From: a virus
Length of the DNA stretch: 64,000 nt
Strand: one strand, 5' to 3'
Virus record (IMG/VR): IMGVR_UViG_3300012352_000117
Location: 8,620-72,619 of that record
Under the pieces are notes generated by a model that worked only from the letters and a program-made list of their open reading frames with translations, was not told the DNA's origin and did no database searches. The position numbers and the translations under genes were made by a program. Shown here in pieces: positions 14,742 through 64,000 of this stretch (within the stretch, counting starts at the first letter, position 1; the number at the start of each line of letters is the position of its first letter).

Positions 14742-14954
14742 CAGATGTATGCTAAAGCGATGTATCAGGCTTGGTGCAACGGCCAAGATCAAATGCTCAT
14801 TCGTTCTCGCTATAAAGTTTTCATTGCTCTTGCAAGTAGAAATCTAAGTAGATCTTTAGATGATATGGAACAGTTTCTTCGAACTCAATCATGGTTTCTA
14901 AAGCCTGAAGATGATTGTACATCTTCTATAGAACATGGTACAATCTATAAATAG
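14739..14954 (+). CDS. hypothetical protein
   Basis: 71 aa ORF. Confidence 0.55.
   Translation: MQMYAKAMYQAWCNGQDQMLIRSRYKVFIALASRNLSRSLDDMEQFLRTQSWFLKPEDDCTSSIEHGTIYK
14946..14953 (+). promoter_or_regulatory. T4 late (gp55) promoter
   Basis: TATAAATA ending 32 nt upstream of the Cys-rich gene. Confidence 0.7.
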
Positions 14955-14984
14955 ACCTATGTACACAAACACTCAAGGTAAAGC

Positions 14985-15401
14985 ATGACTCTACCAGTAT
15001 CACCTAATGCTATATCGTATTCTAATGTCAATACGGAGACTGGCCAAGCCTCGAATTATTCGTCTACTATGGCTTGGATCAAGACTAAAGCTAAGGCCGC
15101 TAACCAATATAATAATCTAGGCCAGTATCGTGGTTTAGCTTTTTACGCAAATAGCACTGCAGGCAATTGTAATAATGGCAATTGTACTACAGGCACATTA
15201 GCCAACTGCGGTAACATCCAATGCACAAACTGCTTTAATACTACTATCAACTGTGCTAATTGCGATGGCGCTACTAGCTATCTTCAGCCAAACTGTAATT
15301 GCGCTTGCACATACAACTGTGCAACAAACCAAGTTTCTTATAACTGTAATTGTGACTGTGCTTGCGCTTGTGACTGTGCTTGCGCTTGTGACTGTGGCTA
15401 A
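14985..15401 (+). CDS. Cys-rich protein, putative radical SAM substrate
   Basis: 138 aa with 20 Cys in the C-terminal part (NC, CxC, CDCACA repeats); directly upstream of the rSAM/SPASM gene. Confidence 0.7.
   Translation: MTLPVSPNAISYSNVNTETGQASNYSSTMAWIKTKAKAANQYNNLGQYRGLAFYANSTAGNCNNGNCTTGTLANCGNIQCTNCFNTTINCANCDGATSYLQPNCNCACTYNCATNQVSYNCNCDCACACDCACACDCG
15351..15396 (+). repeat. 18-nt tandem repeat (2.5 copies) encoding CDCACA
   Basis: TGTGACTGTGCTTGCGCT x2 plus TGTGACTGTG. Confidence 0.9.
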
Positions 15402-15416
15402 ACTCTGGAATTTAAT

Positions 15417-16865
15417 ATGATTTTTGAAATACACGCTGAACGATCTGAGAACGATAAAAAGACATTTTTCTATGACAACATGTCTAACAAACTCTGGACA
15501 GAAGACTTTACGTTTGAATACCCAGAAGAACAACGTATTAAGTATAGTTCTACTGAATCGTTCGCTTTTGATAAGCATACAGGCTTCGGCAAAAGCAGAA
15601 AAATCAATCTTCTTAAGATACAATTAGGTCTTTCATGCAACTATTCATGTGACTATTGTTCTCAGAAATTTGTAGAACGACCAAAGGAGACTTCTAAGAA
15701 AGATATTGAGAACTTCATGTCTTTACTAGATAACCTAGACTTTGATGAATCATTAGGTTTGAAAGTTGAATTCTGGGGAGGTGAACCATTTGTTTACTGG
15801 AAAACAATGAAGCCTCTAGCTGAGACACTTAGAGAAAGATTCAAACACTGGAAAAAGCAGCCACACTTTTCAGTGATCACTAACGGGTCTATTCTCACTA
15901 ATGAAATTTGTGCTTGGCTGTACGCAATGGATTTTTCTATTGGCATCAGTCATGACGGTCCTGGCCAACCTGTTCGTGGTCCGGATCCTTTTGTAGATCC
16001 AGAAAAGAAGAAAGTTGTTCTCAATCTATACAAGATGTTGAAGCCTTCTGGCAGAATTAGTTTTAATTCAATGCTTTCTTCTAAGAACACTAGTAGAAAA
16101 GACATTTATGATTGGTTCGTAGAATTTGTCAACGACAATAATGTTGTTCTTGGTGAAGGCACTCTAGTTGACGCATACGACGAAGATGGTGTCACCAATT
16201 CATTGAATAGCTTGAAAGAGCATTTTGAGTTTCGCAGAACTGCGTTCAACGATATCTACAGTAATGATGGAAGAATCGGGTTTACTGGTATTCTCCAAAA
16301 AGTAGATGAATTTGTTAACTCTGTTTTGAGCCATAGAGATGCAAACACTTTAGGCCAGAAATGTGGAATGGATCGACAAAACACCATTGCCATAGATTTA
16401 ACTGGAAATGTGCTTACATGCCAAAACGTCAGTGCAGTTGAAACTGCTATGAACTTAGAGTCACATCTTGCTGGTAACATTTCTGACATTGATGCAGTTA
16501 ACATTAAGTCTTCTACGCACTGGAAGAAAAGACCTGATTGTTCAAACTGCCCAGTACTTAGCATCTGTAAAGGTGCATGTATGTTTCTAGATGGAAAGTA
16601 CTGGGAAACATCTTGCTCAAATTCATATTCTGACTCTATTGCACTTTTTGCTCTAGCGTTCGAGAAAATCACTAACGGATATATTCCTACTTTCATCAAC
16701 TCTGATGTTCTTCCAAATGAACGCAAAGATATTTGGGGCACTGTACTAGAGCACAAAGAACAACCAAAGAAGAAAGTATTTCCAATCAAAGTTGTAAGCG
16801 AAAAAACCGAATTAGATGGAATTGAAGTTTACACTAAATCTCAATTACAGGAGAACACAAAATGA
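15417..16865 (+). CDS. radical SAM enzyme with SPASM domain (anSME/RiPP-maturase-like)
   Basis: CNYSCDYC (Cx3Cx2C), FWGGEP, ITNG, ISHDG; C-terminal KCG...TCQ and CSNCPVLSICKGAC (Cx2Cx5Cx3C). Confidence 0.9.
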   Translation: MIFEIHAERSENDKKTFFYDNMSNKLWTEDFTFEYPEEQRIKYSSTESFAFDKHTGFGKSRKINLLKIQLGLSCNYSCDYCSQKFVERPKETSKKDIENFMSLLDNLDFDESLGLKVEFWGGEPFVYWKTMKPLAETLRERFKHWKKQPHFSVITNGSILTNEICAWLYAMDFSIGISHDGPGQPVRGPDPFVDPEKKKVVLNLYKMLKPSGRISFNSMLSSKNTSRKDIYDWFVEFVNDNNVVLGEGTLVDAYDEDGVTNSLNSLKEHFEFRRTAFNDIYSNDGRIGFTGILQKVDEFVNSVLSHRDANTLGQKCGMDRQNTIAIDLTGNVLTCQNVSAVETAMNLESHLAGNISDIDAVNIKSSTHWKKRPDCSNCPVLSICKGACMFLDGKYWETSCSNSYSDSIALFALAFEKITNGYIPTFINSDVLPNERKDIWGTVLEHKEQPKKKVFPIKVVSEKTELDGIEVYTKSQLQENTK

Positions 16866-17209
16866 CAGATGATCAAATCCAAAAAGAAAATGCTATAATG
16901 TCAACAGAGAATCTAGCTCTGTTGATTGATGGTATGCGTCGTATTGATGGCGTTCAGCAAGTACGCTGGTGGCCAGCTCTTAGAACCAAGGTTAAAGAAG
17001 TCGCAGATGACAACGCAGTTAGCATTAACTGCTATATGCACTTATACGGTGATACTTCTATTGATAGATATGTTCAACTATCAAAGGTCTATCCATCCAC
17101 AGTTTGGAATGATCCAACAACACACGCTCTTGCTGTATCTGCTATGAGAGATTCTGTTAAGCTATACTTAGAAACTGGAACTTTATCTAATAACGGATAT
17201 GTAGTCTAA
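16862..17209 (+). CDS. hypothetical protein in rSAM cluster
   Basis: 115 aa, overlaps the rSAM stop. Confidence 0.65.
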   Translation: MTDDQIQKENAIMSTENLALLIDGMRRIDGVQQVRWWPALRTKVKEVADDNAVSINCYMHLYGDTSIDRYVQLSKVYPSTVWNDPTTHALAVSAMRDSVKLYLETGTLSNNGYVV

Positions 17210-17221
17210 ATTAAGGATTTT

Positions 17222-17983
17222 GTGATGCTAAGTGAAAGAGAAGTGAATGAGATTTATTATCTGTCGTATTGCAGTTTTGTAGATCAAAGACAAGACCAAA
17301 ATATAAACATGTCTTTGAACGGCGGGGAATGCAATGCCTTGACATGGAATAAACGACTTCTTGGAGCAGCTAGACATGCTGCTAGCGTAAAAGCTCTTAT
17401 TGGTTTTGATAGGGGTTACATTTGGAATTACAATTTTATTAAAGGCTACAATTTCAGTAGTAGTAGAGGCGAACCGCAGACTCACACAATTGAATCTAAC
17501 AAGAGTTGGTTGATGCGATTTAACGACACCAACGATGGTTGGATGTTTGATGGAAATTTTGAAAACAAGAATCAACTAGAGTATTGTATTCTTAACAATC
17601 AAAAGCTTGCTGCCTTAGACTTTATACACGATAAGATACATTCTTATCGAAAAGATTTTAACTACGATCTTCAAGGTCAGCAGACGGTATACATCCGTAA
17701 ATACATTGAAGCAAAGCGTATTTTAGACAATGGAATTGAGTATGATGATACTTTAGAATTCCCATTTGTTTCTGGATATGCAAACCACATTGGTGGAACT
17801 CTTCGTGAAGCTGCTAAAGCTATTGTGTTTAAGTATGAATCAGAGTCAGCTAACATTGCAGAAAGCGAAAATCTTCGACTAAAATTTGTTGATATTATTC
17901 GTAAAGAAAACGATATTAAGAATCTAACTACGATTCTTAATGATTTTGCGACAGAGCATTACTTTTATGGCGGTTCATTGTGA
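17222..17983 (+). CDS. hypothetical protein in rSAM cluster
   Basis: 253 aa; the C-terminal helical segment (KYIEAKRIL...FPFV..YA..IG.TLREAAKAI) loosely recalls tail-fibre-associated proteins. Confidence 0.6.
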   Translation: MMLSEREVNEIYYLSYCSFVDQRQDQNINMSLNGGECNALTWNKRLLGAARHAASVKALIGFDRGYIWNYNFIKGYNFSSSRGEPQTHTIESNKSWLMRFNDTNDGWMFDGNFENKNQLEYCILNNQKLAALDFIHDKIHSYRKDFNYDLQGQQTVYIRKYIEAKRILDNGIEYDDTLEFPFVSGYANHIGGTLREAAKAIVFKYESESANIAESENLRLKFVDIIRKENDIKNLTTILNDFATEHYFYGGSL

Positions 17984-19116
17984 GCGAAATTATTTTCTAT
18001 AATAGCTACGATATTTTTTGTAATCCCAAGAACGACAAGTTCATGCGTGAAATTCCAGGAGGATTGGCCTTCTCTACGTTTTTTAGAATGTTCACTCTTA
18101 ACGTATCTGCTCATGACCGAAGTGGAATAATCACAACACCTATTAAATCTGGTGTATTGGATCATTTGAGAATGCCGGTGTATGATCCAAACTTTTCTAT
18201 GGAGTATGCTCAAGTTGTAGATAATAGAGCACAGCAGCTTATGCAAGCTGCAAAATCTTCTAATAGAAAACTTGCTATAATGTATAGTGGCGGAATCGAT
18301 TCAACGGTTATACTGTGCTCTATTCTTAAAAATTTTAGCGATAAAGACATCAGAGAAAATGTAGTTGTCTTGTTGTCAGATTTCTCTATTAAAGAGAATG
18401 AAAATTTTTATTATAAGTACGTTTCTAAAAGATTTGAATGTGTATCTAGCTTTAGGTTTCCTTACTATGTTGGAAACGATAAGTATATCACCGTGACCGG
18501 AGAAAATGCAGATCAGTTGTTTGGCTCACAAGCAAATGATAACTTCGCTTTTATGTACAAGTATGAAGACCTTCATACATCTGTGGACGATAATGCTGAT
18601 AAAATCTTAACTATGTTTTCATCTAAGATGGATTCTGAAAGAGTTAAGTACGTAGAACCTATCTACAATCTTCTTAGAAAAACCACTAAAGCAGCTCCAA
18701 TTAAAATAGATACTATCTATGACTTCTTTTGGTGGGTGAATTTTGTTATTAAGTGGCAGTCTGTTTATGTTAGGATTCTTCCATTCTCTAACTACAAAGA
18801 CTCTATAAAGATAGAAGACAACTACACTACGTTCTTCCACACCGAAGAATTTCAGCAATGGTCTATGAATAACACTGACAAATTTACATCTCCAGAAATT
18901 GGTATCGGATCTGTTAAGTTAGCTTCTAAAAAGTACATCATAGACGTCAATGGTGATGCGTCTTATATGAATAAGCCAAAGATTGGTAGTTTAGCTAGAT
19001 TGGTTAAACAAAAAGAGATATGTAGTACACTAGATACTAATATGAAATTCAGATATGATCTTCCTACAGAAGACATGTTCAATTATGAGAATGATTTTGT
19101 GGAGATGATGAAATGA
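17980..19116 (+). CDS. asparagine-synthetase-like N-type ATP pyrophosphatase (no glutaminase domain)
   Basis: PP-loop IMYSGGIDS; TGENADQLFG resembles the AsnB GEGADELFG motif; C-terminal K..SK.YI. Confidence 0.7.
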   Translation: MSEIIFYNSYDIFCNPKNDKFMREIPGGLAFSTFFRMFTLNVSAHDRSGIITTPIKSGVLDHLRMPVYDPNFSMEYAQVVDNRAQQLMQAAKSSNRKLAIMYSGGIDSTVILCSILKNFSDKDIRENVVVLLSDFSIKENENFYYKYVSKRFECVSSFRFPYYVGNDKYITVTGENADQLFGSQANDNFAFMYKYEDLHTSVDDNADKILTMFSSKMDSERVKYVEPIYNLLRKTTKAAPIKIDTIYDFFWWVNFVIKWQSVYVRILPFSNYKDSIKIEDNYTTFFHTEEFQQWSMNNTDKFTSPEIGIGSVKLASKKYIIDVNGDASYMNKPKIGSLARLVKQKEICSTLDTNMKFRYDLPTEDMFNYENDFVEMMK

Positions 19117-19769
19117 TCATTGACAACACGATTGATATGTTGGATACGATGTATCCTTCTATCGCAGAAAAAGTCACACAGACTAAACATACTACAAGAG
19201 CTCTGTCTACCTCTTATGGCTATGTGACGTCAGGCGAAGTTGTATTTCCAAGTGGTGCTAAAGCCTTTGAAAAACAATACTTCAGTTTTTGGTCTAAAGA
19301 TGCTGCCAAGATTAAAGTGACTGGGACAACAGTGTTTTTCACTAGAGTTGGTTTCAAAGGACAGAACAATATTGGTGGTCCATTAGAAGAAAGTGGTCGT
19401 CTATGTTATATTGACGGTTGTAGCGATAGTCTTCTAATCTATCCTCCACGTATGGGTGATCCATCTTTGAACGCTCTATACTTTCCAGCTGGCATCAATC
19501 AGTCTTTCCACATTCATCCAAGTATTCGCTTTGGTGTTGTTGCAGAAGGTACTGGATTCTCTTGTGTACAGAATAGTTCTAGTGGAGAAGTTAAAGAGAT
19601 TCCATTGAATCCTGGAGACATGTTCTGTATTGAGGAACGCGAATTACATAGATTCAGAACTGATTCTTCTCATATGATTGTTGTTCCTTATCATCCAGAC
19701 GGTGACTGGGGTCCAACTGATCATAACCACACAATGTTAAATAGAACTTACATTAAAGGCAACACATGA
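19113..19769 (+). CDS. cupin-fold protein
   Basis: YIDGCSDSLLI.PP..GDP.LN.LYFP.GI.QSFHIHPS.R.G.V..G.G and a later ELHRFRT (metal-binding His). Confidence 0.7.
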   Translation: MIIDNTIDMLDTMYPSIAEKVTQTKHTTRALSTSYGYVTSGEVVFPSGAKAFEKQYFSFWSKDAAKIKVTGTTVFFTRVGFKGQNNIGGPLEESGRLCYIDGCSDSLLIYPPRMGDPSLNALYFPAGINQSFHIHPSIRFGVVAEGTGFSCVQNSSSGEVKEIPLNPGDMFCIEERELHRFRTDSSHMIVVPYHPDGDWGPTDHNHTMLNRTYIKGNT

Positions 19770-19933
19770 AGTTCAAGTTTATCCAAAGAGGTATGTACAC
19801 TGGACATACCTTTGAAATAGATCACTATCATCCGGCAGATCCTAGCAGAAACTTAGTCTGGCTAAAGTGTCTCGATGATGATAGCATACAGATCAATCGG
19901 TATGTAAAAATTACCGAACTGAAATTGTTGTAA
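19766..19933 (+). CDS. hypothetical protein (55 aa, below ORF-track cutoff)
   Basis: Manual translation MKFKFIQRGMYTGHTFEIDHYHPADPSRNLVWLKCLDDDSIQINRYVKITELKLL. Confidence 0.55.
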   Translation: MKFKFIQRGMYTGHTFEIDHYHPADPSRNLVWLKCLDDDSIQINRYVKITELKLL

Positions 19934-20216
19934 TCCCTTCAAAGCGAAGGACTTCTGGACGCGGGTTCGACTCCCGCCATCTCCACCAAAAGTGTATTAG
20001 TGAGGGTCTGTCCTTTTCAATAGAGATTCCTAAGGAATGCAGCTAATATATTTTTGATGGGGATGCCATGGTTTCGACAGGGGTAGATAGTAGAGACGGC
20101 AACACGGTAGGCGATGACCGTAAATCAAGCAAAACTAGTAAATGCAAACGATAACGCATTTTTGATGGCTGCATAAATCGGCTATCGGGGTAAGACATAC
20201 CTCGCAACAGAAACTC
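19934..20216 (+). ncRNA. ssrA: circularly permuted two-piece tmRNA
   Basis: The T-arm GCGGGTTCGACTCCCGC and CATCTCC-A-CCA (ends 19988) precede the 5' strand GGGGATG (20059), giving a 7-bp acceptor stem with G3:U70. Tag frame 20144-20176 encodes ANDNAFLMAA-stop. Outer boundaries are approximate. Confidence 0.92.
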
Positions 20217-20243
20217 AAAATAGGCTCTTCGGAGCCTATTTTT
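20217..20243 (+). terminator. intrinsic terminator with UUCG loop
   Basis: AAAATAGGCTC-TTCG-GAGCCTATTTTT. Confidence 0.9.
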
Positions 20244-20277
20244 ATGCCTAGAATTTGATGTTTTGAATATCAAATTC

Positions 20278-53086: not shown

Positions 53087-56000
53087 ATGACAACTAACTT
53101 TAACGTAGAGCCATATTATGATGACTACTCTGAAGATAAGAAATTCTATAGAATTCTCTTCAGACCTGGTTATGCGGTTCAGGCTCGAGAGTTAACACAG
53201 CTTCAAACGATTCTACAAAAACAAATTGAGCGTACTGGAAATCATCTATTCAAAGATGGTTCTATGGTCATTCCTGGCCAAGTGTCATTTGACACTAAGC
53301 TGGCGTATGTAAAACTGAAAGCAACTTACGGAACAACTGATATCTCAGCTTATGTTCTGAACATGATTGGTATGACTATCGAAGGTCAAACAACTGGTGT
53401 TCGTGCTAAAGTTGTTCAGGCATCTAAAGCCTCTGGTTCTGATCCAGTAATGTTGTTCGTTAAGTACACTAGCAATGGTGCTGCTGATGAACTAGGTACT
53501 GATCAAGGTGCTCAAAGAGAATTCTTAGCTAATGAAGTGTTAACTACACTAGTTAATGAAGGCGAAACAAGCTATACCGTTCAGATTCAATCTACTAACA
53601 CTACACTAAACCCAGCGTTTGGTGAAAGTTCTGCAGCGTCTGTTTCTAAAGGTGTCTATTACATCAAAGGATTCTTTGTTCTAGTTGACGATCAAACTGT
53701 TATTCTAGACAAGTACAAGAAGAATCCTACGACAAAGGTTGGATTAAAGATTGTAGAATCTTTGATTGAGCCAGAAGATGATGAAACACTTCTTGATAAC
53801 GCACAGAGCAGCTATAACTATTCTGCTCCAGGCGCACATCGCTATACGATCGATGCTCAGCTGTCAAAACGAGCTATTGGTTCGGCTGAAACTGAAGACT
53901 TTATTGAACTACTTCGTGTAGTAAACGGTAAGATTCAGTACATCGTAAACAAAACAAGTTACGCTGTATTAGAAGACAATTTAGCTCGTCGTACTTATGA
54001 CGAATCTGGCAACTACACTGTTCGTCCATTCGGTATTGATGTTCGTGAATACCGCGACAACTATCGTGTTACTTGGACTGCTGGCACTGCATATTTAGCC
54101 GGTGACATTATTAGATACAACAATTTGTACTATGTCGCCAAAAAGAGTGGTGTTTCTCTAAGTGTTGCAAATCCTACACTAGATACAAACTGCAGCTGGG
54201 AAGAAACAGCGTCTCCAGCTTTTAACCGTGGTATCTATCCAGCACCTACAACAGTTAAGAAGCCTGTACTAGATATCAATGGCGAACCGACTTTCAATCT
54301 AGATGAAGATGGAAACATCGTTTCTCAGATCTTCACTACTCCAAATGCTACAGTAGCTGATCACCTAGAACTAGAAGGTAAGTTAGCAGTTGGACTAGAA
54401 TCTGGTAAAGCATACGTCTATGGATACGAAATTGAAAAGTTTGGCACATCTTATGTAGACGTACAAAAGTCACGTGAGATTGATTCTGAGTCTAATGTTC
54501 TTTTCTCTGCCGACTACGGTAACTATGTTCTAGTTAACAATGTAAACTTTGCACCAACAATTTCTTCTCTACCAGAAGTCAAGTTGTATAACGCTTATAC
54601 TACTACAGCTGGAGCAATTCCATCTGGTACAGGCGTTGTTGAAGTTGGTACTGCAAGAGTAAGAGGATTCGAATGGCATTCTGGGGCAACATCTGGAGCT
54701 AATGCTTATTACAAGTTGTTCTTGTTTGACATTAAGATGAATCAGATTCCCGGTGATGCTTTTGGTAATCGTTACACGTTTAACTATCATGCTAAGCAAT
54801 TTAGAATTGCTGGTGCTGGTAACACTAGTTCATTCACTGCTGATGCTGCAGTTCTTCCAGAAGTAAAAACTGGTGCTATCACTTTCACTGGTGGCCCAAC
54901 TTCAACTATTATTGGCGTGAACACTAAGTTCTTGACTGAACTAAAAGTTGGTGATTACATCTTCTTGGACAACTCTCCACGTAGAATTACATCTATCACT
55001 AGCAACACTTCGTTGACCATCAGCACAAACGTTGGAAATCAATCTGGTACTTTAGTTCTAAAATGTACTGCACTACTACAAGATACAACTAAATCTTCTC
55101 TAGTATTCCCTCTACCACAATACGCTGTTAAAACAGCTTCTGTTAGTTCTTATTATGTTTCTGATGTCTTCAGTGTTAATGCATCATTGGCATCTGGAGC
55201 GACATGTAGCGTAATCATTACTACTTCTGGTGGAAATGAATTTGCTAATCCAGGCGACTTTGGTAACTTTACTCTATTCAGCGCATTTGATGGTAGTGTT
55301 GTCACACCAAGCGCTGCTGTACGTGCCGGCGATAATCTATCTGTCACATTTACTATTCCATCCGCATATGCATCTACTGCATTCTTAGTATACGCTACTA
55401 TCAATAAAGAGCAGTCAATTGGTTTAAAGTCTAAGACAGTTACAACTGGTACTTCTACGAAGACTACTAAGTCTACTGCACAAGCAAAGATTGTTTATCT
55501 TGGAAAAGCTGACGGTATCAAACTGAAGTCTGTTAAGATGGCAACAGGTGATTTTACAACGCCTGGCTCTTACACGATCGACATCACTTCTCGTTATTCT
55601 TTCAATGGCGGCCAGACATCTTCATACTATGGCATTGCTAATATAACATTGAAAGATGGACAAGCATTGCCTACTGCTCCAATTCAAGTAACTTACGAAT
55701 ACTATAACCACGGAAGTGGCGACTTCTTCACTGTAGACTCATACACAAATTACAAAGAAGTTCCAGTCTTTGCTGGTATTAACTTACGTGATTGTATTGA
55801 CTTCCGTCCACGAGTAGACGACTCCAACACTGGTGAGATTGTATTCAGTGGTGGTAATGATCTTCTTCCAAAGTTTGGAGAAGACATGATCATCAGCTAC
55901 GAATATTATCTTGGCCGCAAGTCTAAGATCGCTATCAACAAGTCTGGTGATTTTAGAGTTGTTGACGGTGCATCAAGTCTAACTCCATCAGAACCTAGCG

Positions 56001-59000
56001 ATCCAACTAACAGCATGGTTCTATATAAGTTGGAATTAGAACCATATACATTTACAACTAACTCTACATCAGTTGCAATTACACCTATCGAAAACAAGCG
56101 CTATACTATGCGTGATATCGGTAGAATTGAGCAACGTGTAAATCAATTAGAATACTATACATCTTTGTCTTTGCTTGAGCAAGAAACAAAGAACTTGACT
56201 ATTCAAGACGAAGATGGATTTGATAGATTCAAGAACGGTTTTATTGTAGATAACTTCACAAGTCAATCTGTTGGAAATCCTGAATCTCCTGACTACTCAT
56301 GTTCAGTTGATATGGAGAATGGAATTCTACGTCCATTCTACAGCATGACTAACGTCGATTTTACTGAAACTCATACTAAGAACAGTGACCGTGCTGGTGC
56401 AAACATCAACTATCAGTTAACTGGTGATGTGATCACACTACCATACACAAATGTTAGCTTGATCAATCAGCCTGCTGCTTCAACTGCTGTCAACGTTAAC
56501 CCATTTGCTGTGTTCACATACATCGGTCAAGCAGAACTGTATCCTCCATTCGACCGTTGGTTTGAAGTTAATCGCCGTCCTGACATTATTCTTAGCGTAG
56601 AAGGAAACTATAACGCTATTAAGACACTAGCTGAAAAAGCTGGTGTTCTTGGTACTGTTTGGAATGCATGGCAGACACAGTGGACTGGTGCAACAGTAAG
56701 TACTGGTACAAACACAGAATTTATGCGTGGTAACGGTATTAGATTCGTTACTACAGAAACTACAGCTACAAACGTCGGTCAATCTAGATCTGGTATAAAG
56801 ACTACGATCAAAGAGAGCATCGAGATGAAAACAGTCGACGACAAAGTGTTGTCGGTTGCAACAATTCCATTCATGCGTAGCCGTAATATCTTAGTTCAAG
56901 CTAAGGGATTGAAGCCAAACACAATTTTCTATCCATACTTTGATAAGCAATCTATTTCTGCATACTGCGACCCTGCTGATAAATTAGTGATTAACAAGAC
57001 TGGGTTCAACTCCATCAACTTTAACGACGATGAAAACGCAGAACCAGTAATTAACGTTGGTGCAGACTATAAAAACTCTGCACGTGCCATCGGTCCAAAC
57101 CCAGATATGGCGCTAAACGTTGGTGACGTATTATATGTCTCAAAGCGTGGAGCTACAACATATACAGCTGCGACATCTCCTACAACTGCAGTCGTAGTTG
57201 GTACAGAGAATAAGCTTACAGCTGGTGTAGTTACAGAGCGCTCATTGTACATTGTTAACGTAAAAGATTCAAACACATCTGATGGTGTTGGTTTCTTGGC
57301 AAACGATGAAATCGCTGGTACAGTCAGTGGAGCTACTGCTAAAGTTGTTTCTCACACAGTTAGAGCAGTTGGTTCACAACTGACTACTGACACTAATGGT
57401 GAAGTTAACTTCTTGTTCAACGTTCCAAATACCGATGCTCTACGTTTCCGTACAGGTAAGAAAGAACTTGCTCTTCTTGATAAGTCAACATATGATTTAC
57501 TAGCAGCTAACTCTTCTCTGACTACAGAATACGAAGCTCAAGGTTTCTTAGAAACACGTCAAGCTACAGTACAAGCAGTTCGTAACGCAACTTTAGTAAC
57601 TGAAACTGTTAGCGAGAACAGAACTGTTGTTCAATCTAACCAGCGTATCATTGCTGACACAGGTTGGTACGACCCTCTAGCTCAAACTTTCTTAGTTGAC
57701 GGATATCCAGAAGGTACTCCTACTGGCGATGTTTCCGCAAAAGTACAAGGCGGCGGTTGCTTCTTGACTGGAGTAGACATCTTCTTTGCAACAAAGGATG
57801 ATTCAGCTCCTGTTATTCTTCAGATTCGTGAAGTTGTTAACGGCTATCCAGGCCGTGCAGTATTACCATTCTCACAAGTTGTTCTGAAGGCTGATAAAGT
57901 AAATACTTCTACAAACTCAAGCGTAGCAACTAGATTCACGTTCCCATCACCAGTATACGTACAGAATTCTACTGAATACTGTATCGTTCTTCTTTCTAAC
58001 TCTATTGGTTACAAAGTTTGGGTGTCCGATCTTGGTCAGAAAGATTTGTTGACCAGCAACAACATCGACAAGCAACCGTACTCTGGTGTGTTGTTCAAGT
58101 CTCAGAATGCTTCTACTTGGACTGCTGAACAGATGCAAGACTTGAAGTTCCAGTTGTATCGTGCTAAATTCCTAACCGGAAAAGTTGGCAGAGTTGAATT
58201 CGAGAACAACGTTATCAAAGATGAAGAACTAGATCTAGATCCAATTCAGTTTACTGCTGGTTCTAATAAAGTTCGTGTGAACATGCGTAATCACGGTATG
58301 ACCGCTGGTGCATATCCATCAAAAGTTACTCTACGAGTAGACAGCGAAGTTACAACTGGCACAATTACCGTGACTAAGAGTTCCACAACAGTGACAGGTG
58401 TTGGTACCGCATTCTTGACAGATATGGCAGCAGAATCTGCGTTGTACGATAAACAAGGTCGTCTAATTGGTGTTGTTGCATCTATCGCAAGCAACACAAG
58501 CTTGACACTATCTTCTGCTGCAACATTTGCATATACAGGCACATGGAGATTTGTAAATGCTATCTATGGCATCAAACCTATTAACTTGTTCAAGCAACAC
58601 ACAGTTACAGCTGTAGAAGAATTTGATAACTTCATTATTACTCTATCTGAGAATGCTACACAAACTGGTTATGGCGGTGGTTCTGGTATCAAAGCTACTC
58701 GTCAGATTCAGTATGACGCTGTACAACCATACATGACTTATCAGACATTCGCTAATACAAAGATTGTTCCATACTATATTGGTATTACTGGTAAGTCGAT
58801 TGATGGTTCGCAAGTACCATATAGAAAATCCAATGATGGCGGATATGGATACATGCCAGTCACATTGAATGAAACTAACAATATGCCAGTTCCATTCATG
58901 CTAGTCTCAGATGAAAACGCTGCAGCTCGTCCAGGCGATGGCATCACTCTAGATCTATCTACAAAAACTGGAAGCCGAAACTCTGCAATTATCAGAGCAG

Positions 59001-59983
59001 ATATCTACAGCGATGTTGATACTCTATCTCCAGTAATCGACACACGAAGTGTTTCAGCTATTTTGATCAGCAACAAGGTTAACAACCCATCTAGCGCTAT
59101 CAACATTACACCGATCGATGATCGTGCTATCATAACTAGCGCAACGGACGTCACAGTTCGAACAGCTACTGTCTCTGTATTCAGAGCAAGCAATGTAGTT
59201 ACTATCAACACTAACGGTGCTCACGGATTTGTTGTTGGACAAAAAGTTAGAGTAGCTCTTACAGATAATACTGACTTCAACGGCGAATTCACGATTCTTT
59301 CTGTTGACGAAACTAAGTTTACTTACACTTTAGCTGGTACTGATTTTGCGACAGAAGGTTCTCCAGATGCAGACGTTGGTTATGTCTACGGCGGTGTTAT
59401 CAAGATTGGTAATACTGGAGAGAATAGAGCTAACGCCGCTACTCTGTATTCTGGTCAATATGTTAAGATTCAAGGTGTGAATATTTACGGCGAATCTACT
59501 CCAGACAACGTTGTAGAAGTTCTGCTATCAGATGTTTCTGCAGATGGTTCAATTCTAAGAGTTGGTTCTATCTTATCTGTTGGCACTGGAAATATTAGCA
59601 TCACGTCTTATGATCGTTTCTATGATGAAATTACCCCAGTTGGTTCTTCTAGTTACAGTAAATACGTAACAAAGAGAATCATACTTGCTAACCCATCTAC
59701 ATTCTTGAAGATTCGTTATGCTGCTTCTGTGCCACTCACATCTGATATTAAAGTCTACTACAAGCTTGGCTTAGTCGGTTCATATGAAGATTTTTCTACT
59801 GTTGAATATTCTAAAGCTAATGTGACATATAAGAAGTCTAACGACGGCGTATTCAAAGATGTTGAAATCGACATTCCTGATCTGCAGAGCTTTAGTTCTT
59901 TCGCAGTTAAGCTTGTTTTCACATCTACAGATTCTTCTAAGGTTCCGCAAGTTAAAGAACTAAGACTAATTGCTTGCGCATAA
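53087..59983 (+). CDS. DUF4815/VrlC-like large virion structural protein
   Basis: FNV.PYYDDY...K.FYRILFRPG.AVQARELTQLQ; LARRTYDESGNY; RFKNGFIVDNF; DPLAQTF; DLKF.LYRA.F. Confidence 0.85.
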   Translation: MTTNFNVEPYYDDYSEDKKFYRILFRPGYAVQARELTQLQTILQKQIERTGNHLFKDGSMVIPGQVSFDTKLAYVKLKATYGTTDISAYVLNMIGMTIEGQTTGVRAKVVQASKASGSDPVMLFVKYTSNGAADELGTDQGAQREFLANEVLTTLVNEGETSYTVQIQSTNTTLNPAFGESSAASVSKGVYYIKGFFVLVDDQTVILDKYKKNPTTKVGLKIVESLIEPEDDETLLDNAQSSYNYSAPGAHRYTIDAQLSKRAIGSAETEDFIELLRVVNGKIQYIVNKTSYAVLEDNLARRTYDESGNYTVRPFGIDVREYRDNYRVTWTAGTAYLAGDIIRYNNLYYVAKKSGVSLSVANPTLDTNCSWEETASPAFNRGIYPAPTTVKKPVLDINGEPTFNLDEDGNIVSQIFTTPNATVADHLELEGKLAVGLESGKAYVYGYEIEKFGTSYVDVQKSREIDSESNVLFSADYGNYVLVNNVNFAPTISSLPEVKLYNAYTTTAGAIPSGTGVVEVGTARVRGFEWHSGATSGANAYYKLFLFDIKMNQIPGDAFGNRYTFNYHAKQFRIAGAGNTSSFTADAAVLPEVKTGAITFTGGPTSTIIGVNTKFLTELKVGDYIFLDNSPRRITSITSNTSLTISTNVGNQSGTLVLKCTALLQDTTKSSLVFPLPQYAVKTASVSSYYVSDVFSVNASLASGATCSVIITTSGGNEFANPGDFGNFTLFSAFDGSVVTPSAAVRAGDNLSVTFTIPSAYASTAFLVYATINKEQSIGLKSKTVTTGTSTKTTKSTAQAKIVYLGKADGIKLKSVKMATGDFTTPGSYTIDITSRYSFNGGQTSSYYGIANITLKDGQALPTAPIQVTYEYYNHGSGDFFTVDSYTNYKEVPVFAGINLRDCIDFRPRVDDSNTGEIVFSGGNDLLPKFGEDMIISYEYYLGRKSKIAINKSGDFRVVDGASSLTPSEPSDPTNSMVLYKLELEPYTFTTNSTSVAITPIENKRYTMRDIGRIEQRVNQLEYYTSLSLLEQETKNLTIQDEDGFDRFKNGFIVDNFTSQSVGNPESPDYSCSVDMENGILRPFYSMTNVDFTETHTKNSDRAGANINYQLTGDVITLPYTNVSLINQPAASTAVNVNPFAVFTYIGQAELYPPFDRWFEVNRRPDIILSVEGNYNAIKTLAEKAGVLGTVWNAWQTQWTGATVSTGTNTEFMRGNGIRFVTTETTATNVGQSRSGIKTTIKESIEMKTVDDKVLSVATIPFMRSRNILVQAKGLKPNTIFYPYFDKQSISAYCDPADKLVINKTGFNSINFNDDENAEPVINVGADYKNSARAIGPNPDMALNVGDVLYVSKRGATTYTAATSPTTAVVVGTENKLTAGVVTERSLYIVNVKDSNTSDGVGFLANDEIAGTVSGATAKVVSHTVRAVGSQLTTDTNGEVNFLFNVPNTDALRFRTGKKELALLDKSTYDLLAANSSLTTEYEAQGFLETRQATVQAVRNATLVTETVSENRTVVQSNQRIIADTGWYDPLAQTFLVDGYPEGTPTGDVSAKVQGGGCFLTGVDIFFATKDDSAPVILQIREVVNGYPGRAVLPFSQVVLKADKVNTSTNSSVATRFTFPSPVYVQNSTEYCIVLLSNSIGYKVWVSDLGQKDLLTSNNIDKQPYSGVLFKSQNASTWTAEQMQDLKFQLYRAKFLTGKVGRVEFENNVIKDEELDLDPIQFTAGSNKVRVNMRNHGMTAGAYPSKVTLRVDSEVTTGTITVTKSSTTVTGVGTAFLTDMAAESALYDKQGRLIGVVASIASNTSLTLSSAATFAYTGTWRFVNAIYGIKPINLFKQHTVTAVEEFDNFIITLSENATQTGYGGGSGIKATRQIQYDAVQPYMTYQTFANTKIVPYYIGITGKSIDGSQVPYRKSNDGGYGYMPVTLNETNNMPVPFMLVSDENAAARPGDGITLDLSTKTGSRNSAIIRADIYSDVDTLSPVIDTRSVSAILISNKVNNPSSAINITPIDDRAIITSATDVTVRTATVSVFRASNVVTINTNGAHGFVVGQKVRVALTDNTDFNGEFTILSVDETKFTYTLAGTDFATEGSPDADVGYVYGGVIKIGNTGENRANAATLYSGQYVKIQGVNIYGESTPDNVVEVLLSDVSADGSILRVGSILSVGTGNISITSYDRFYDEITPVGSSSYSKYVTKRIILANPSTFLKIRYAASVPLTSDIKVYYKLGLVGSYEDFSTVEYSKANVTYKKSNDGVFKDVEIDIPDLQSFSSFAVKLVFTSTDSSKVPQVKELRLIACA

Positions 59984-61575: not shown

Positions 61576-64000
61576 ATGACAACAATTGTACTAAGAGCAA
61601 ATACACCAGGTGGTCTAACCAACACCCAGCTTGATGCCAACTTTACAAATCTAAACAACGACAAAGTTGAAACTTCGTATCTGTCGAACACCTTTGCAGG
61701 TACTACAAATATTACAACTTTAGGTACCATTGCAACTGGTACTTGGAGTGCAAGCACCATCGCTGTTAATAAAGGCGGCACTGGTGTAACAACATCAACT
61801 GGTACAGGTTCTGTAGTTCTAAGCACTTCTCCAACATTAGTTACTCCTACACTTGGAGTAGCTAGTGCTACGTCTATTAACAAAGTTGCAATCACTGCTC
61901 CAGCAACTGGATCTACACTTACAATCGCAGATGGTAAGACATTAACTGCTAGCAATACGCTTACATTTACTGGTACAGACGCTTCATCAGTAGCATTCGG
62001 CGCTGGTGGTACTGTTGTGTACACCGCAAACAAACTAAGTGCTCTTTCTGCAACAACTTCAGCTGAACTTGCAGGTGTTATCTCTGATGAGACTGGCACT
62101 GGTAAACTTACATTTGCAACTAGCCCTACATTCACTACGTCGATCTTAACAGATTCGACAACATTTGCAATTGCTAATACAACTGCAACTACACTAAACA
62201 TTGGTGGAGCAGCGACTACTATTGCGATTGGCGCTTCTACAGGCACTACGACAATTGGCAATAGTCTTGTTGTTACTGGCAACTTGACAGTTAATGGAAC
62301 TACTACATCCATTAACACTGCAACAATCTCTGTCGACGATATTGCTATTGAACTAGGTGATGTTACTACACCGACTGATACTACAGCAAACGGCGGTGGT
62401 ATTATTCTTAAAGGCACAACCAATAAGACTATCCTTTGGAATTCTACAGACGTTGCTTGGAATTCTTCTGAGAGTTTTAACGTAGCAACTGGCAAACAAT
62501 ACGAGATTGGTGGTACTTCAGTACTAAGCAGTACTACTCTAGGATCTGGAGTTACATTCTCAAGTCTAACTTCTGTTGGAGTTATCGCCACAGGAACTTG
62601 GCAAGCAACAGATATTGGTCTAGCTCATGGCGGTACTGGTGCGACTCTGACTGCAGCAGATGGTGGTATCGTCTACTCAACTTCTTCTGCTCTAGCTATT
62701 GCTGATATCGCTGGTGTGGTCTACGCTAACACGACTGGAGCTCCTACTGCTGCTACTGCAGCCAACATTGGTTCTATTGTAGACACACGATACGCGATGA
62801 TTGGCACTACAACACCAACATCAGAATATCTTTATGTCACTAGAACTTCTACTTCTCCGACATTATATGTACGTCAAGGTTCTACTGGCGATCTAGCTTC
62901 GTTCTTTGTAAGCGCTACTGCCGGTGCAACATCTGGTACTTCATATGTCACGCTTACAAACACTGGTGGTATCAATGCTACTGGTGTTCTTGCTACTGCA
63001 AACGGTACTGCAGCACTACCAAGTCACACCTTCATATCTGATACTAACACAGGTATTTCGTCAAACGGTGCTGATATTCTAACAATTTCTACTGCCGGTG
63101 CAGCTAGAGTGACTGTTAATGCTATCGGTGATGTTAACGTCAATAAACAGTTGGGTGTAGGTGGTACACATAACCCAGCAACTGGTCCTATCACCACATT
63201 AGGTGCGATCACTGCCGGCGGTACTGGTTACATGAACGGTACTCATACTAGTGTTCCTCTAACTTCAGCTGGAGGTGCTAACGCATTAGGCACAGTGACT
63301 GTTGCAGGTGGTATTGTTACAGGAGTTACTTTGACATGGGGTGGATATCGCTACTCTGCGGCCGAAGTTTTAACTGTAGGTACTCCAGCAACTACTGTTG
63401 CAACTACTGCAGCATCTGGCACAGGTTCTGCTGCTACAATAACATTTGCAGCTCAAGCTGCAGCACCATTCCAAGTTGGCGCACAGATTGTAGTTGCTGG
63501 TGTTACGCCAACTGCATATAATGGAACATTCACAGTAACAGCTTGCACTACTACTACAGTTACATATGCTAGCACTGCTACAGGCGCACAGACTGTTGCT
63601 GGTACTGTCAAGCAAGGAACTGCTTTAACTAATGCTACACTAACAGCTAGTGCTGTTCAAGGCACCGGTGTGTACATTGCTTCAAGTTCAGTACCGCGTA
63701 TTAGACTTGAAAACACTGCTACTAGTGTATCTTCTGGCACTGAATTAGGTACTATTCTATTCTCTAGTGCTGATGGTAGTGCTAATGCATCAGGCGACGT
63801 TGCATATATTAGAGCTATTGCAGCTGGTACTTCTGGTGGCGGCTACTTCCAATTCTTTACATCTGTCAACGGTGGTGCGCCATCTATGTCAATGTATTTG
63901 AACTCTACTGAGCAATATAACACTGGTCATATCTATCTTACAACATCAGATGATGTTAATGCCGATGCAACAACTACATTTATTGACTCTAGCGCACTGT
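61576..64000 (+). CDS. long tail fibre protein, 3' truncated by window edge (absent from ORF track)
   Basis: Frame is open from ATG 61576 (MTTIVLRANTPGGLTNTQLDANF); T/G/A/S-rich with GGTG motifs; read codon by codon without a stop to about 63720 and appears open to the window end. Confidence 0.85.
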   Translation, partial: MTTIVLRANTPGGLTNTQLDANFTNLNNDKVETSYLSNTFAGTTNITTLGTIATGTWSASTIAVNKGGTGVTTSTGTGSVVLSTSPTLVTPTLGVASATSINKVAITAPATGSTLTIADGKTLTASNTLTFTGTDASSVAFGAGGTVVYTANKLSALSATTSAELAGVISDETGTGKLTFATSPTFTTSILTDSTTFAIANTTATTLNIGGAATTIAIGASTGTTTIGNSLVVTGNLTVNGTTTSINTATISVDDIAIELGDVTTPTDTTANGGGIILKGTTNKTILWNSTDVAWNSSESFNVATGKQYEIGGTSVLSSTTLGSGVTFSSLTSVGVIATGTWQATDIGLAHGGTGATLTAADGGIVYSTSSALAIADIAGVVYANTTGAPTAATAANIGSIVDTRYAMIGTTTPTSEYLYVTRTSTSPTLYVRQGSTGDLASFFVSATAGATSGTSYVTLTNTGGINATGVLATANGTAALPSHTFISDTNTGISSNGADILTISTAGAARVTVNAIGDVNVNKQLGVGGTHNPATGPITTLGAITAGGTGYMNGTHTSVPLTSAGGANALGTVTVAGGIVTGVTLTWGGYRYSAAEVLTVGTPATTVATTAASGTGSAATITFAAQAAAPFQVGAQIVVAGVTPTAYNGTFTVTACTTTTVTYASTATGAQTVAGTVKQGTALTNATLTASAVQGTGVYIASSSVPRIRLENTATSVSSGTELGTILFSSADGSANASGDVAYIRAIAAGTSGGGYFQFFTSVNGGAPSMSMYLNSTEQYNTGHIYLTTSDDVNADATTTFIDSSAL

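Follow-up and report, generated by a model that had tools for sequence, protein, structure and literature searches.

To our knowledge, radical S-adenosylmethionine (SAM) maturases of the SPASM type are known to act on small exported peptides and on a single enzyme subunit, QhpC. QhpD acts on this protein subunit, not on a short exported peptide. Asparagine and aspartate are the known acceptor residues of ranthipeptide-type links, as in PapB and QhpD. Here we describe a cluster of six genes, A to F, in a 64,000-nucleotide (nt) stretch of phage DNA (the window), which is part of the 76.9-kb IMG/VR viral record IMGVR_UViG_3300012352_000117. Its first two genes encode a Cys-rich protein (A) and a radical SAM/SPASM enzyme (B). 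They resemble PapA/PapB (freyrasin) and QhpC/QhpD in that B has a CX3CX2C motif and a full SPASM domain and finds its best curated matches there, and in that A is rich in Cys beside Asn or Asp. They differ in that A has runs of X-Cys dipeptides and an Asn-Cys core instead of CX3D, B scores far under the family cut-offs, a RiPP (peptide made by ribosomes and modified after translation) recognition element (RRE), a protease and an exporter are absent, and the carriers are phage proteins. The CXXX-repeat radical SAM systems (TIGR04114/TIGR04115) likewise join a Cys-repeat module to a dedicated radical SAM maturase, but their Cys recurs every fourth residue rather than every second as in the tail of A, and they belong to a different protein family; the 25 top-ranked NCBIfam matches of B do not include TIGR04115. 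Judged by sequence, the A-B system would work like radical SAM/SPASM peptide maturation, yet it falls into no curated maturase family and does not fit the classical description of a RiPP. We regard it as somewhat probable that A and B are a late-expressed pair in which B cross-links the Cys tail of a virion fibre or adhesin part, and that D-E-F is a recruited module. The cluster consists of the following features.

14946-14953, + strand: late-promoter-like TATAAATA of the T4 type, 31 nt before the ATG of A
14985-15401, + strand: gene A, 138 amino acids (aa), 20 Cys, every one within the last 78 residues
15350-15396, + strand: exact 18-nt tandem repeat, 2.6 copies, encoding CDCACA units at the 3' end of A
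15417-16865, + strand: gene B, 482 aa, radical SAM/SPASM enzyme
16862-17209, + strand: gene C, 115 aa, alpha/beta protein
17222-17983, + strand: gene D, 253 aa, poorly conserved
17980-19116, + strand: gene E, 378 aa, PP-loop enzyme with SGGIDS
19113-19769, + strand: gene F, 218 aa, cupin

The six open reading frames (ORFs) are co-directional and tightly packed, with 4-nt overlaps at B/C, D/E and E/F. A preliminary description of the locus, made from the letters alone, had listed the six ORFs, the 20 Cys, the CX3CX2C and SPASM motifs, the SGGIDS PP-loop, the cupin and TATAAATA, and all of them are found in the places it gave.

The association of A with B was examined in 73 unique viral loci that carry B, in 56 of which B is flanked by 1.2 kb or more on each side. 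A same-strand homolog of A is present in 56/56 flanked loci and lies within 100 nt of B in 48. Among the other six-frame ORFs of those loci, 23/1552 are Cys-rich (at least 8% Cys). The co-occurrence of a Cys-rich protein with a SPASM radical SAM enzyme, the lack of which the preliminary description had named as refuting its proposal, is thus a conserved pairing. The type of A tracks the phylogeny of B, and type II forms one clade with 100/100 support. The presence of an A homolog beside B in every flanked locus suggests that A and B are the invariant core of the system and a functional substrate-enzyme pair, in which B would act on A.

More distant homologs of B show which part of A is shared. 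In 59/80 bacterial-genome loci, a B homolog (35–50% identity) follows a same-strand ORF that ends in (N/D/A-C)n, e.g. ...YNFNCNCNCACDCCC, with ...NCNCNC(D)CC as the general form. These Cys-tailed ORFs are about 100–600 aa long, and the contigs are mostly betaproteobacterial. Achromobacter phage JWF encodes a B homolog, gp030, with 44% identity two genes after the fibre protein gp028, in which ...NCNCDCNCNCSC is immediately followed by a Hint domain. The B homolog of Ralstonia phage RSP15, gp045, follows the side tail fibre gp048, which ends in ...NCQCGN, and precedes a giant baseplate-type protein that is also present in the window at 53087. Because these distant homologs pair with Cys tails that have no A-type head, the tail rather than the head appears to be the common partner of B. 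The giant protein of the window (53087-59983, 2298 aa) and RSP15 gp044 (locus L002, 7349-12283) share an N-terminal start, ...PYFDDY..KF.RILF. RSP15 gp044 directly follows the radical SAM gene and is annotated as 1615 aa, or 1644 aa when read from an upstream GTG.

Gene A has 1131 homologous clusters. The window protein opens with a conserved N-terminal head (MTLPxSGxIS..IN.E.G), joined by a linker to a core of about 75 residues that is rich in Asn and Cys; its C-terminus is an (X-Cys)n tail that ends in ...CDCACACDCG. Eleven of its 20 Cys are preceded by Asn. The family shares this plan: the head measures about 35 residues, the linker varies (in locus L028 it is a long Gly-rich domain), the Asn/Cys core has the invariant positions GNC, NC, NC.NCD, Q, C and YNC, and the C-terminal end is variable. 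In the tail dipeptides, X is Asn in 55–66%, Ala in 8–34% and Asp in 8–15%, and Asn or Asp together precede Cys in 63–81%. The C-terminal ends divide the family into six classes.

Class Ia: C-terminus (CA/CD)n with a final Gly, the type found in the window
Class Ib: C-terminus ...CACACW
Class Ic: C-terminus NCNCNC
Class II: about 300 aa, gene downstream of B, conserved 170-residue extension after ...NCNCSKIIC
Class III: C-terminal Hint domain (Pfam Hom_end_hint, 5.5e-10)
Class IV: C-terminal Peptidase_S74 intramolecular chaperone (Pfam, 1.2e-6)

In endosialidase-type fibres, self-cleavage of the C-terminal module sets the mature C-terminus. Peptidase_S74 and Hint/BIL modules stand directly after the Cys tail in relatives of A and in the JWF fibre, so that the tail would become the mature C-terminus there as well. 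Cleavage of a class IV protein (the variant of locus L015) by its S74 domain would leave ...CACFW, which resembles the free ...CACACW of class Ib. The A of the window differs in ending with the tail itself and carries no such module. The Cys tail is plausibly the mature C-terminus in all classes of A. The extension of class II was considered as a fused C or D and was rejected (hhalign probability ~0.1). This 170-residue C-terminal domain is an uncharacterised fibre-associated module that begins at a conserved Cys. It is shared by gp028 of Synechococcus phage SynMITS9220M01 (locus L168, 2669-4519), which stands among genes annotated as fibre and in which a Gly-rich domain is followed by about 34 Pro in a row, an Arg run and the class II domain.

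The carriers of the tail point to the virion. 6/10 bacterial tail carriers tested match PHROG tail-fibre families (up to 5e-89), and 2 of those 6 also match Pfam Collagen (3.5e-43). 16/51 viral loci have, upstream of the pair, a fibre ORF with an S74 end whose stop is no more than 150 nt away, and in locus L010 the A-B pair is flanked by two S74 fibre genes. The window and about 150 related loci show neither an exporter nor a leader protease, and no immunity gene recurs beside the pair. Since in related phages the tail ends collagen-like or other trimeric tail fibres, or precedes self-cleaving S74 or Hint domains, we infer that the product is most probably a part of a virion fibre or adhesin, rather than a peptide that is secreted. 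Of the two products proposed in the preliminary description, the cross-linked virion appendage or adhesin is the one favoured by these comparisons, and the released bioactive peptide is the less favoured. A trimeric carrier, as with collagen repeats and S74 chaperones, would make stapling between chains possible.

The chemistry of B was approached through its motifs. The cluster motif CX3CX2C comprises C74, C78 and C81. The SPASM region was compared with the pattern CX9-15GX4C ... CX2CX5CX3C ... C, which denotes two auxiliary 4Fe-4S clusters. B has the full seven-Cys pattern, C316-X13-G-X4-C335 ... C375-X2-C378-X5-C384-X3-C388 ... C400, and the seven Cys are invariant across 15 homologs. B passes Pfam Radical_SAM (PF04055; 31.3 bits, cut-off 29.5) and NCBIfam SPASM (TIGR04085; 36.5 bits, cut-off 27). 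About 60 residues precede the core, and a conserved extension of about 80 residues follows at the C-terminus. The best curated matches are the PapB (1.5e-22), geopeptide, QhpD (1.5e-18) and CcpM maturases; anSME (anaerobic sulfatase-maturating enzyme) is also matched (TIGR03942, 5.8e-15; PDB 4k36, 1e-5). No Pfam match to PqqD/RRE was obtained in B or C. The family is uncurated and largely phage-borne (phrog_1802, 1.6e-59), with 2566 clusters of relatives in the protein collection at E ≤ 1e-10 and members encoded in at least 527 IMG/VR stretches and 224 bacterial-genome stretches. Its members abound in freshwater phages of Betaproteobacteria as well as in the prophages of these bacteria. Three radical SAM genes in a row, adjoining virion structural genes, were also seen in Ralstonia jumbo phage RP12 (locus L004, 2132-7242); one is 26% identical to B, and that cassette is different and more complex.

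These features suggest the following sequence of events. B, with its two auxiliary SPASM clusters, would reductively cleave SAM, take a hydrogen from a carbon of the residue beside a Cys and join that carbon to the Cys sulfur, by thioether chemistry as in PapB, QhpD and CteB. Such staples, inside one chain or from chain to chain, would leave a compact tail that is independent of the redox state. Because the tail is Cys-dense and Asn and Asp dominate beside Cys, thioether cross-linking by B has about an even chance within the overall explanation. D would be a helical partner, E an AsnB-type adenylating, amide-forming enzyme and F a cupin, and the three would act on Gly-ended, Asp-containing tails, e.g. 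by adenylating a carboxylate and then forming an amide. In its most specific form the proposal is that an unnamed radical SAM/SPASM family (more than 500 viral and more than 200 bacterial contigs) staples (Asn/Asp/Ala-Cys)n fibre tips through C-S bonds, possibly between the chains of a trimer, while D-E-F amidates or ligates Gly-ended tails; this version we hold tentatively, at a little less than an even chance. If it is true, it would represent a post-translational modification of a kind new to virions, and a new viral way to harden or lock the host-recognition apparatus inside a reducing cytoplasm. The virion appendage would contain a covalent knot that is made by an enzyme and proof against redox changes, and the X-Cys repeats would amount to a compact, genetically encoded cross-linking tag. 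The system is widespread, and the cultured phages JWF and RSP15 make it accessible to experiments. A literature search, which did not cover all journals, returned no paper in which phage fibre proteins are matured by a radical SAM enzyme.

Late expression of the pair had been proposed from the promoter-like sequence upstream of A. The window contains 6 copies of TATAAATA where 3.4 are expected, which is not significant alone, and 4/6 copies lie within 50 nt upstream of a start codon. Exact TATAAATA was rejected as a conserved feature, as it is present in just 12/69 loci; it is the shorter ATAAATA core that is enriched. In 30/69 loci this core lies no further than 70 nt upstream of whichever gene of the pair comes first, where about 1 is expected (~0.015 per 70-nt window). 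The enrichment bears out the proposal in that it fits T4-type late promoters and suggests that A and B are late-expressed. RNA libraries from four riverine studies contain short contigs that are 99–100% identical to pieces of A to F, which is no proof of transcription.

Genes D, E and F were examined separately. E carries the motif MYSGGIDST, and its model is confident (predicted local distance difference test (pLDDT) score 96.6). Foldseek matches it with probability 1.0 and E ~1e-4 to beta-lactam synthetase, AsnB, TsnB9, carbapenam synthetase and McjC (1mc1, 1ct9, 7ylz), with template modelling (TM) scores of 0.3–0.4 against those structures. The likeness to AsnB-type synthetases thus lies in the SGGxDS PP-loop and the fold, and the assignment of E as AsnB-like in the preliminary description agrees with the model. 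E differs from them in having no N-terminal glutaminase domain (the aligned region starts at residue 50–70), in its subthreshold Pfam score, in its obligate upstream partner D and in the absence of a lasso-type protease or core. The E of the window has no match to Pfam Asn_synthase (PF00733), and a homolog (locus L013) reaches 16.7 bits where the threshold is 21. E is predicted from its modelled fold to be an AsnB-fold adenylating enzyme without a glutaminase domain, and the PP-loop together with the synthetase fold implies adenylation of a carboxylate followed by amide formation. F passes Cupin_2 (PF07883; 28.9 bits, cut-off 27.2) with HIH and a later His. D has no conserved Cys or His, and for this reason a lasso-type Cys protease was rejected; a homolog of JWF gp029 was rejected as well since there is no similarity. 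A weak language-model likeness of D to tail-fibre assembly proteins (0.88–0.92, TM 0.46) is a lead only.

The preliminary description had treated the six genes as one pathway. Only 12/78 E-centred viral loci contain B, which suggests that D-E-F is a separate, independent mobile module. A D-like gene overlaps the start of E in nearly all 78 loci, and F is present in many. The genes that D-E pairs follow are many and unrelated, and some pairs are duplicated; tandem copies (about 215 + 374 aa, then about 208 + 365 aa) were seen in loci L130, L138, L146, L154 and others. With 1602 clusters of E at 50% identity, D-E is a very large phage family, independent of the radical SAM pair. C occurs in only part of the A-B family, so that neither C nor D-E-F can be counted with the pair as a single pathway.

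D/E stands beside A/B in 8/9 loci with Gly-ended tails and in 0/54 others (Fisher p = 2e-9). The Gly-ended type with D-E appears in at least 4 places in the tree of B, and a further case is provided by the Polynucleobacter contig described below (locus L169). These results suggest that D-E-F may have been recruited as an amide-forming enzyme onto tail ends that contain Asp and Gly. We put this somewhat short of an even chance since the number of independent evolutionary events is small.

The alternative that survives best is that D-E-F, as an auxiliary module unrelated to the pair and serving, e.g., small-molecule or some other protein modification, merely adjoins A-B-C in a hyperplastic region. 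That 66/78 E-centred loci have no B, that D-E follows so many unrelated genes and that the E family is far larger than the Gly-ended type of A all favour it. Its difficulty is the restriction of D-E, when beside A/B, to Gly-ended tails, which recurs on several branches of the B tree and in L169 with constant order and strand, and with stop/start overlaps in the window. We consider this alternative quite conceivable, if not the expected outcome.

Several observations weigh against the explanation as a whole. The N-terminal head of A has no match in 50,697 cultured phage genomes. The neighbours of A-F in the window are auxiliary genes (a PD-(D/E)XK nuclease, the tmRNA and curli-like genes), and the baseplate module is about 18 kb away. 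The window A itself has no Pfam or NCBIfam match and no fibre-domain match in Pfam and PHROG searches, and its gene lies outside the baseplate module. The association with Gly-ended tails depends on few evolutionary events, and D-E-F may have nothing to do with A, since it is mostly found in the absence of A/B. A predicted complex of B with A scored 0.01, which is not evidence either way. B is under every curated family cut-off (PapB, NF047865: 80.3 bits, cut-off 340). Its closest solved sequence relative is 8vpo (2.4e-10), a structure from a paper on radical SAM cyclopropyl(glycine) synthases, followed by CteB and anSME. With B below all cut-offs and a cyclopropylglycine synthase as its nearest structure, homology does not fix the reaction.

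The (X-Cys)n tails could also bind metal rather than be cross-linked. The tail would then be a metal- or Fe-S-binding, metallothionein-like module or a disulfide knot, and B would carry out other chemistry, e.g. conversion of Cys to formylglycine as in anSME, C-C bond formation or epimerisation. CxC spacing and a Cys content of about 25%, as in the last 78 residues of A, are metallothionein-like, and the matches of B to anSME and 8vpo are in keeping with such reactions. We consider this unlikely, because the strict pairing of A with a radical SAM enzyme implies that the tail needs enzymatic maturation, the prevalence of Asn and Asp before Cys fits ranthipeptide acceptors, and the top curated matches of B make thioethers.

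The weakest alternative is a true RiPP precursor, in which the N-terminal ~60 residues of A are a leader, the core is tailored by B (and E and F) and lysis sets free a bioactive peptide, e.g. a bacteriocin, a signal or a metal binder. Although A looks like a leader plus core, B finds its best curated matches among RiPP maturases and E shares its fold with the lasso cyclase McjC, this is very improbable, because a leader protease, exporter and immunity gene are not conserved beside the pair, no RRE was found in B or C, the same tail, with the same enzyme family, occurs on ORFs of 200–600 aa (the six tail-fibre and two collagen matches above, with S74 or Hint following), and B homologs of 44% identity work with no A-type head in JWF and RSP15. 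A reading of A as a standard RiPP precursor is thus not supported, and cross-linking of a fibre or adhesin tail by B is the reading we retain.

Gene C was modelled with good confidence (pLDDT 89) as a small alpha/beta protein, and its start overlaps the end of B. In PDB and AFDB clusters, Foldseek gave no match with an E value below 0.03, and an Atlas language-model search with C gave no usable match. An RRE/PqqD-like partner was rejected, as the confident model matches no known fold. C accompanies A classes Ia, Ib, III and IV, sometimes tandem-duplicated or N-terminally extended, and is absent from II and Ic. We propose that C is a family-specific accessory helper.

Two further features follow the cluster.

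19766-19933, + strand: ORF G, 55 aa, with a 4-nt overlap with F
19858-20244, + strand: transfer-messenger RNA (tmRNA) gene, RF01850, 160 bits (gathering score 84); also matches RF04321, permuted tmRNA

ORF G is doubtful as a gene because related loci contain no homolog of it and its 3' part runs into the tmRNA gene. The tmRNA is of the betaproteobacterial two-piece type and sits directly after the A-F cluster. River-sample RNA contigs match its conserved part at high depth. Elsewhere the window encodes a T4-type baseplate hub/lysozyme, wedge and tube cap, a gp32-type single-stranded DNA-binding protein (SSB) and PhoH. The T4-type baseplate genes together with the gp32-type SSB and PhoH indicate that the source phage is a T4-like myovirus. 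Cluster megablast, tblastn with E and tblastn with the head of A gave zero matches in the 50,697 cultured phage genomes, so the lineage is uncultured. Close to the end of the window, at 63370-63615 on the - strand, lies an 81-aa, Ser-rich ORF with 19 Cys, which may be a wrong-frame artefact of a repetitive gene.

The metagenomes that match the stretch are aquatic, freshwater and riverine, and the bacterial contigs with B homologs are mostly from Limnohabitans, Polynucleobacter and Burkholderiaceae. The type of tmRNA, the taxa of these contigs and a contig from a Polynucleobacter culture with the order A-B-D-E-F suggest that the host is probably a freshwater betaproteobacterium. This contig, L169, comes from Polynucleobacter sp. 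JS-Safj-400b-B2, is 28.7 kb long and has a coverage of ~277 according to its name. It carries a Gly-ended A, B (59% identity), D, E and F, ordered as in the window. L169 is probably a phage of the window's lineage replicating in the Polynucleobacter culture, and it offers a possible route to a cultured representative.

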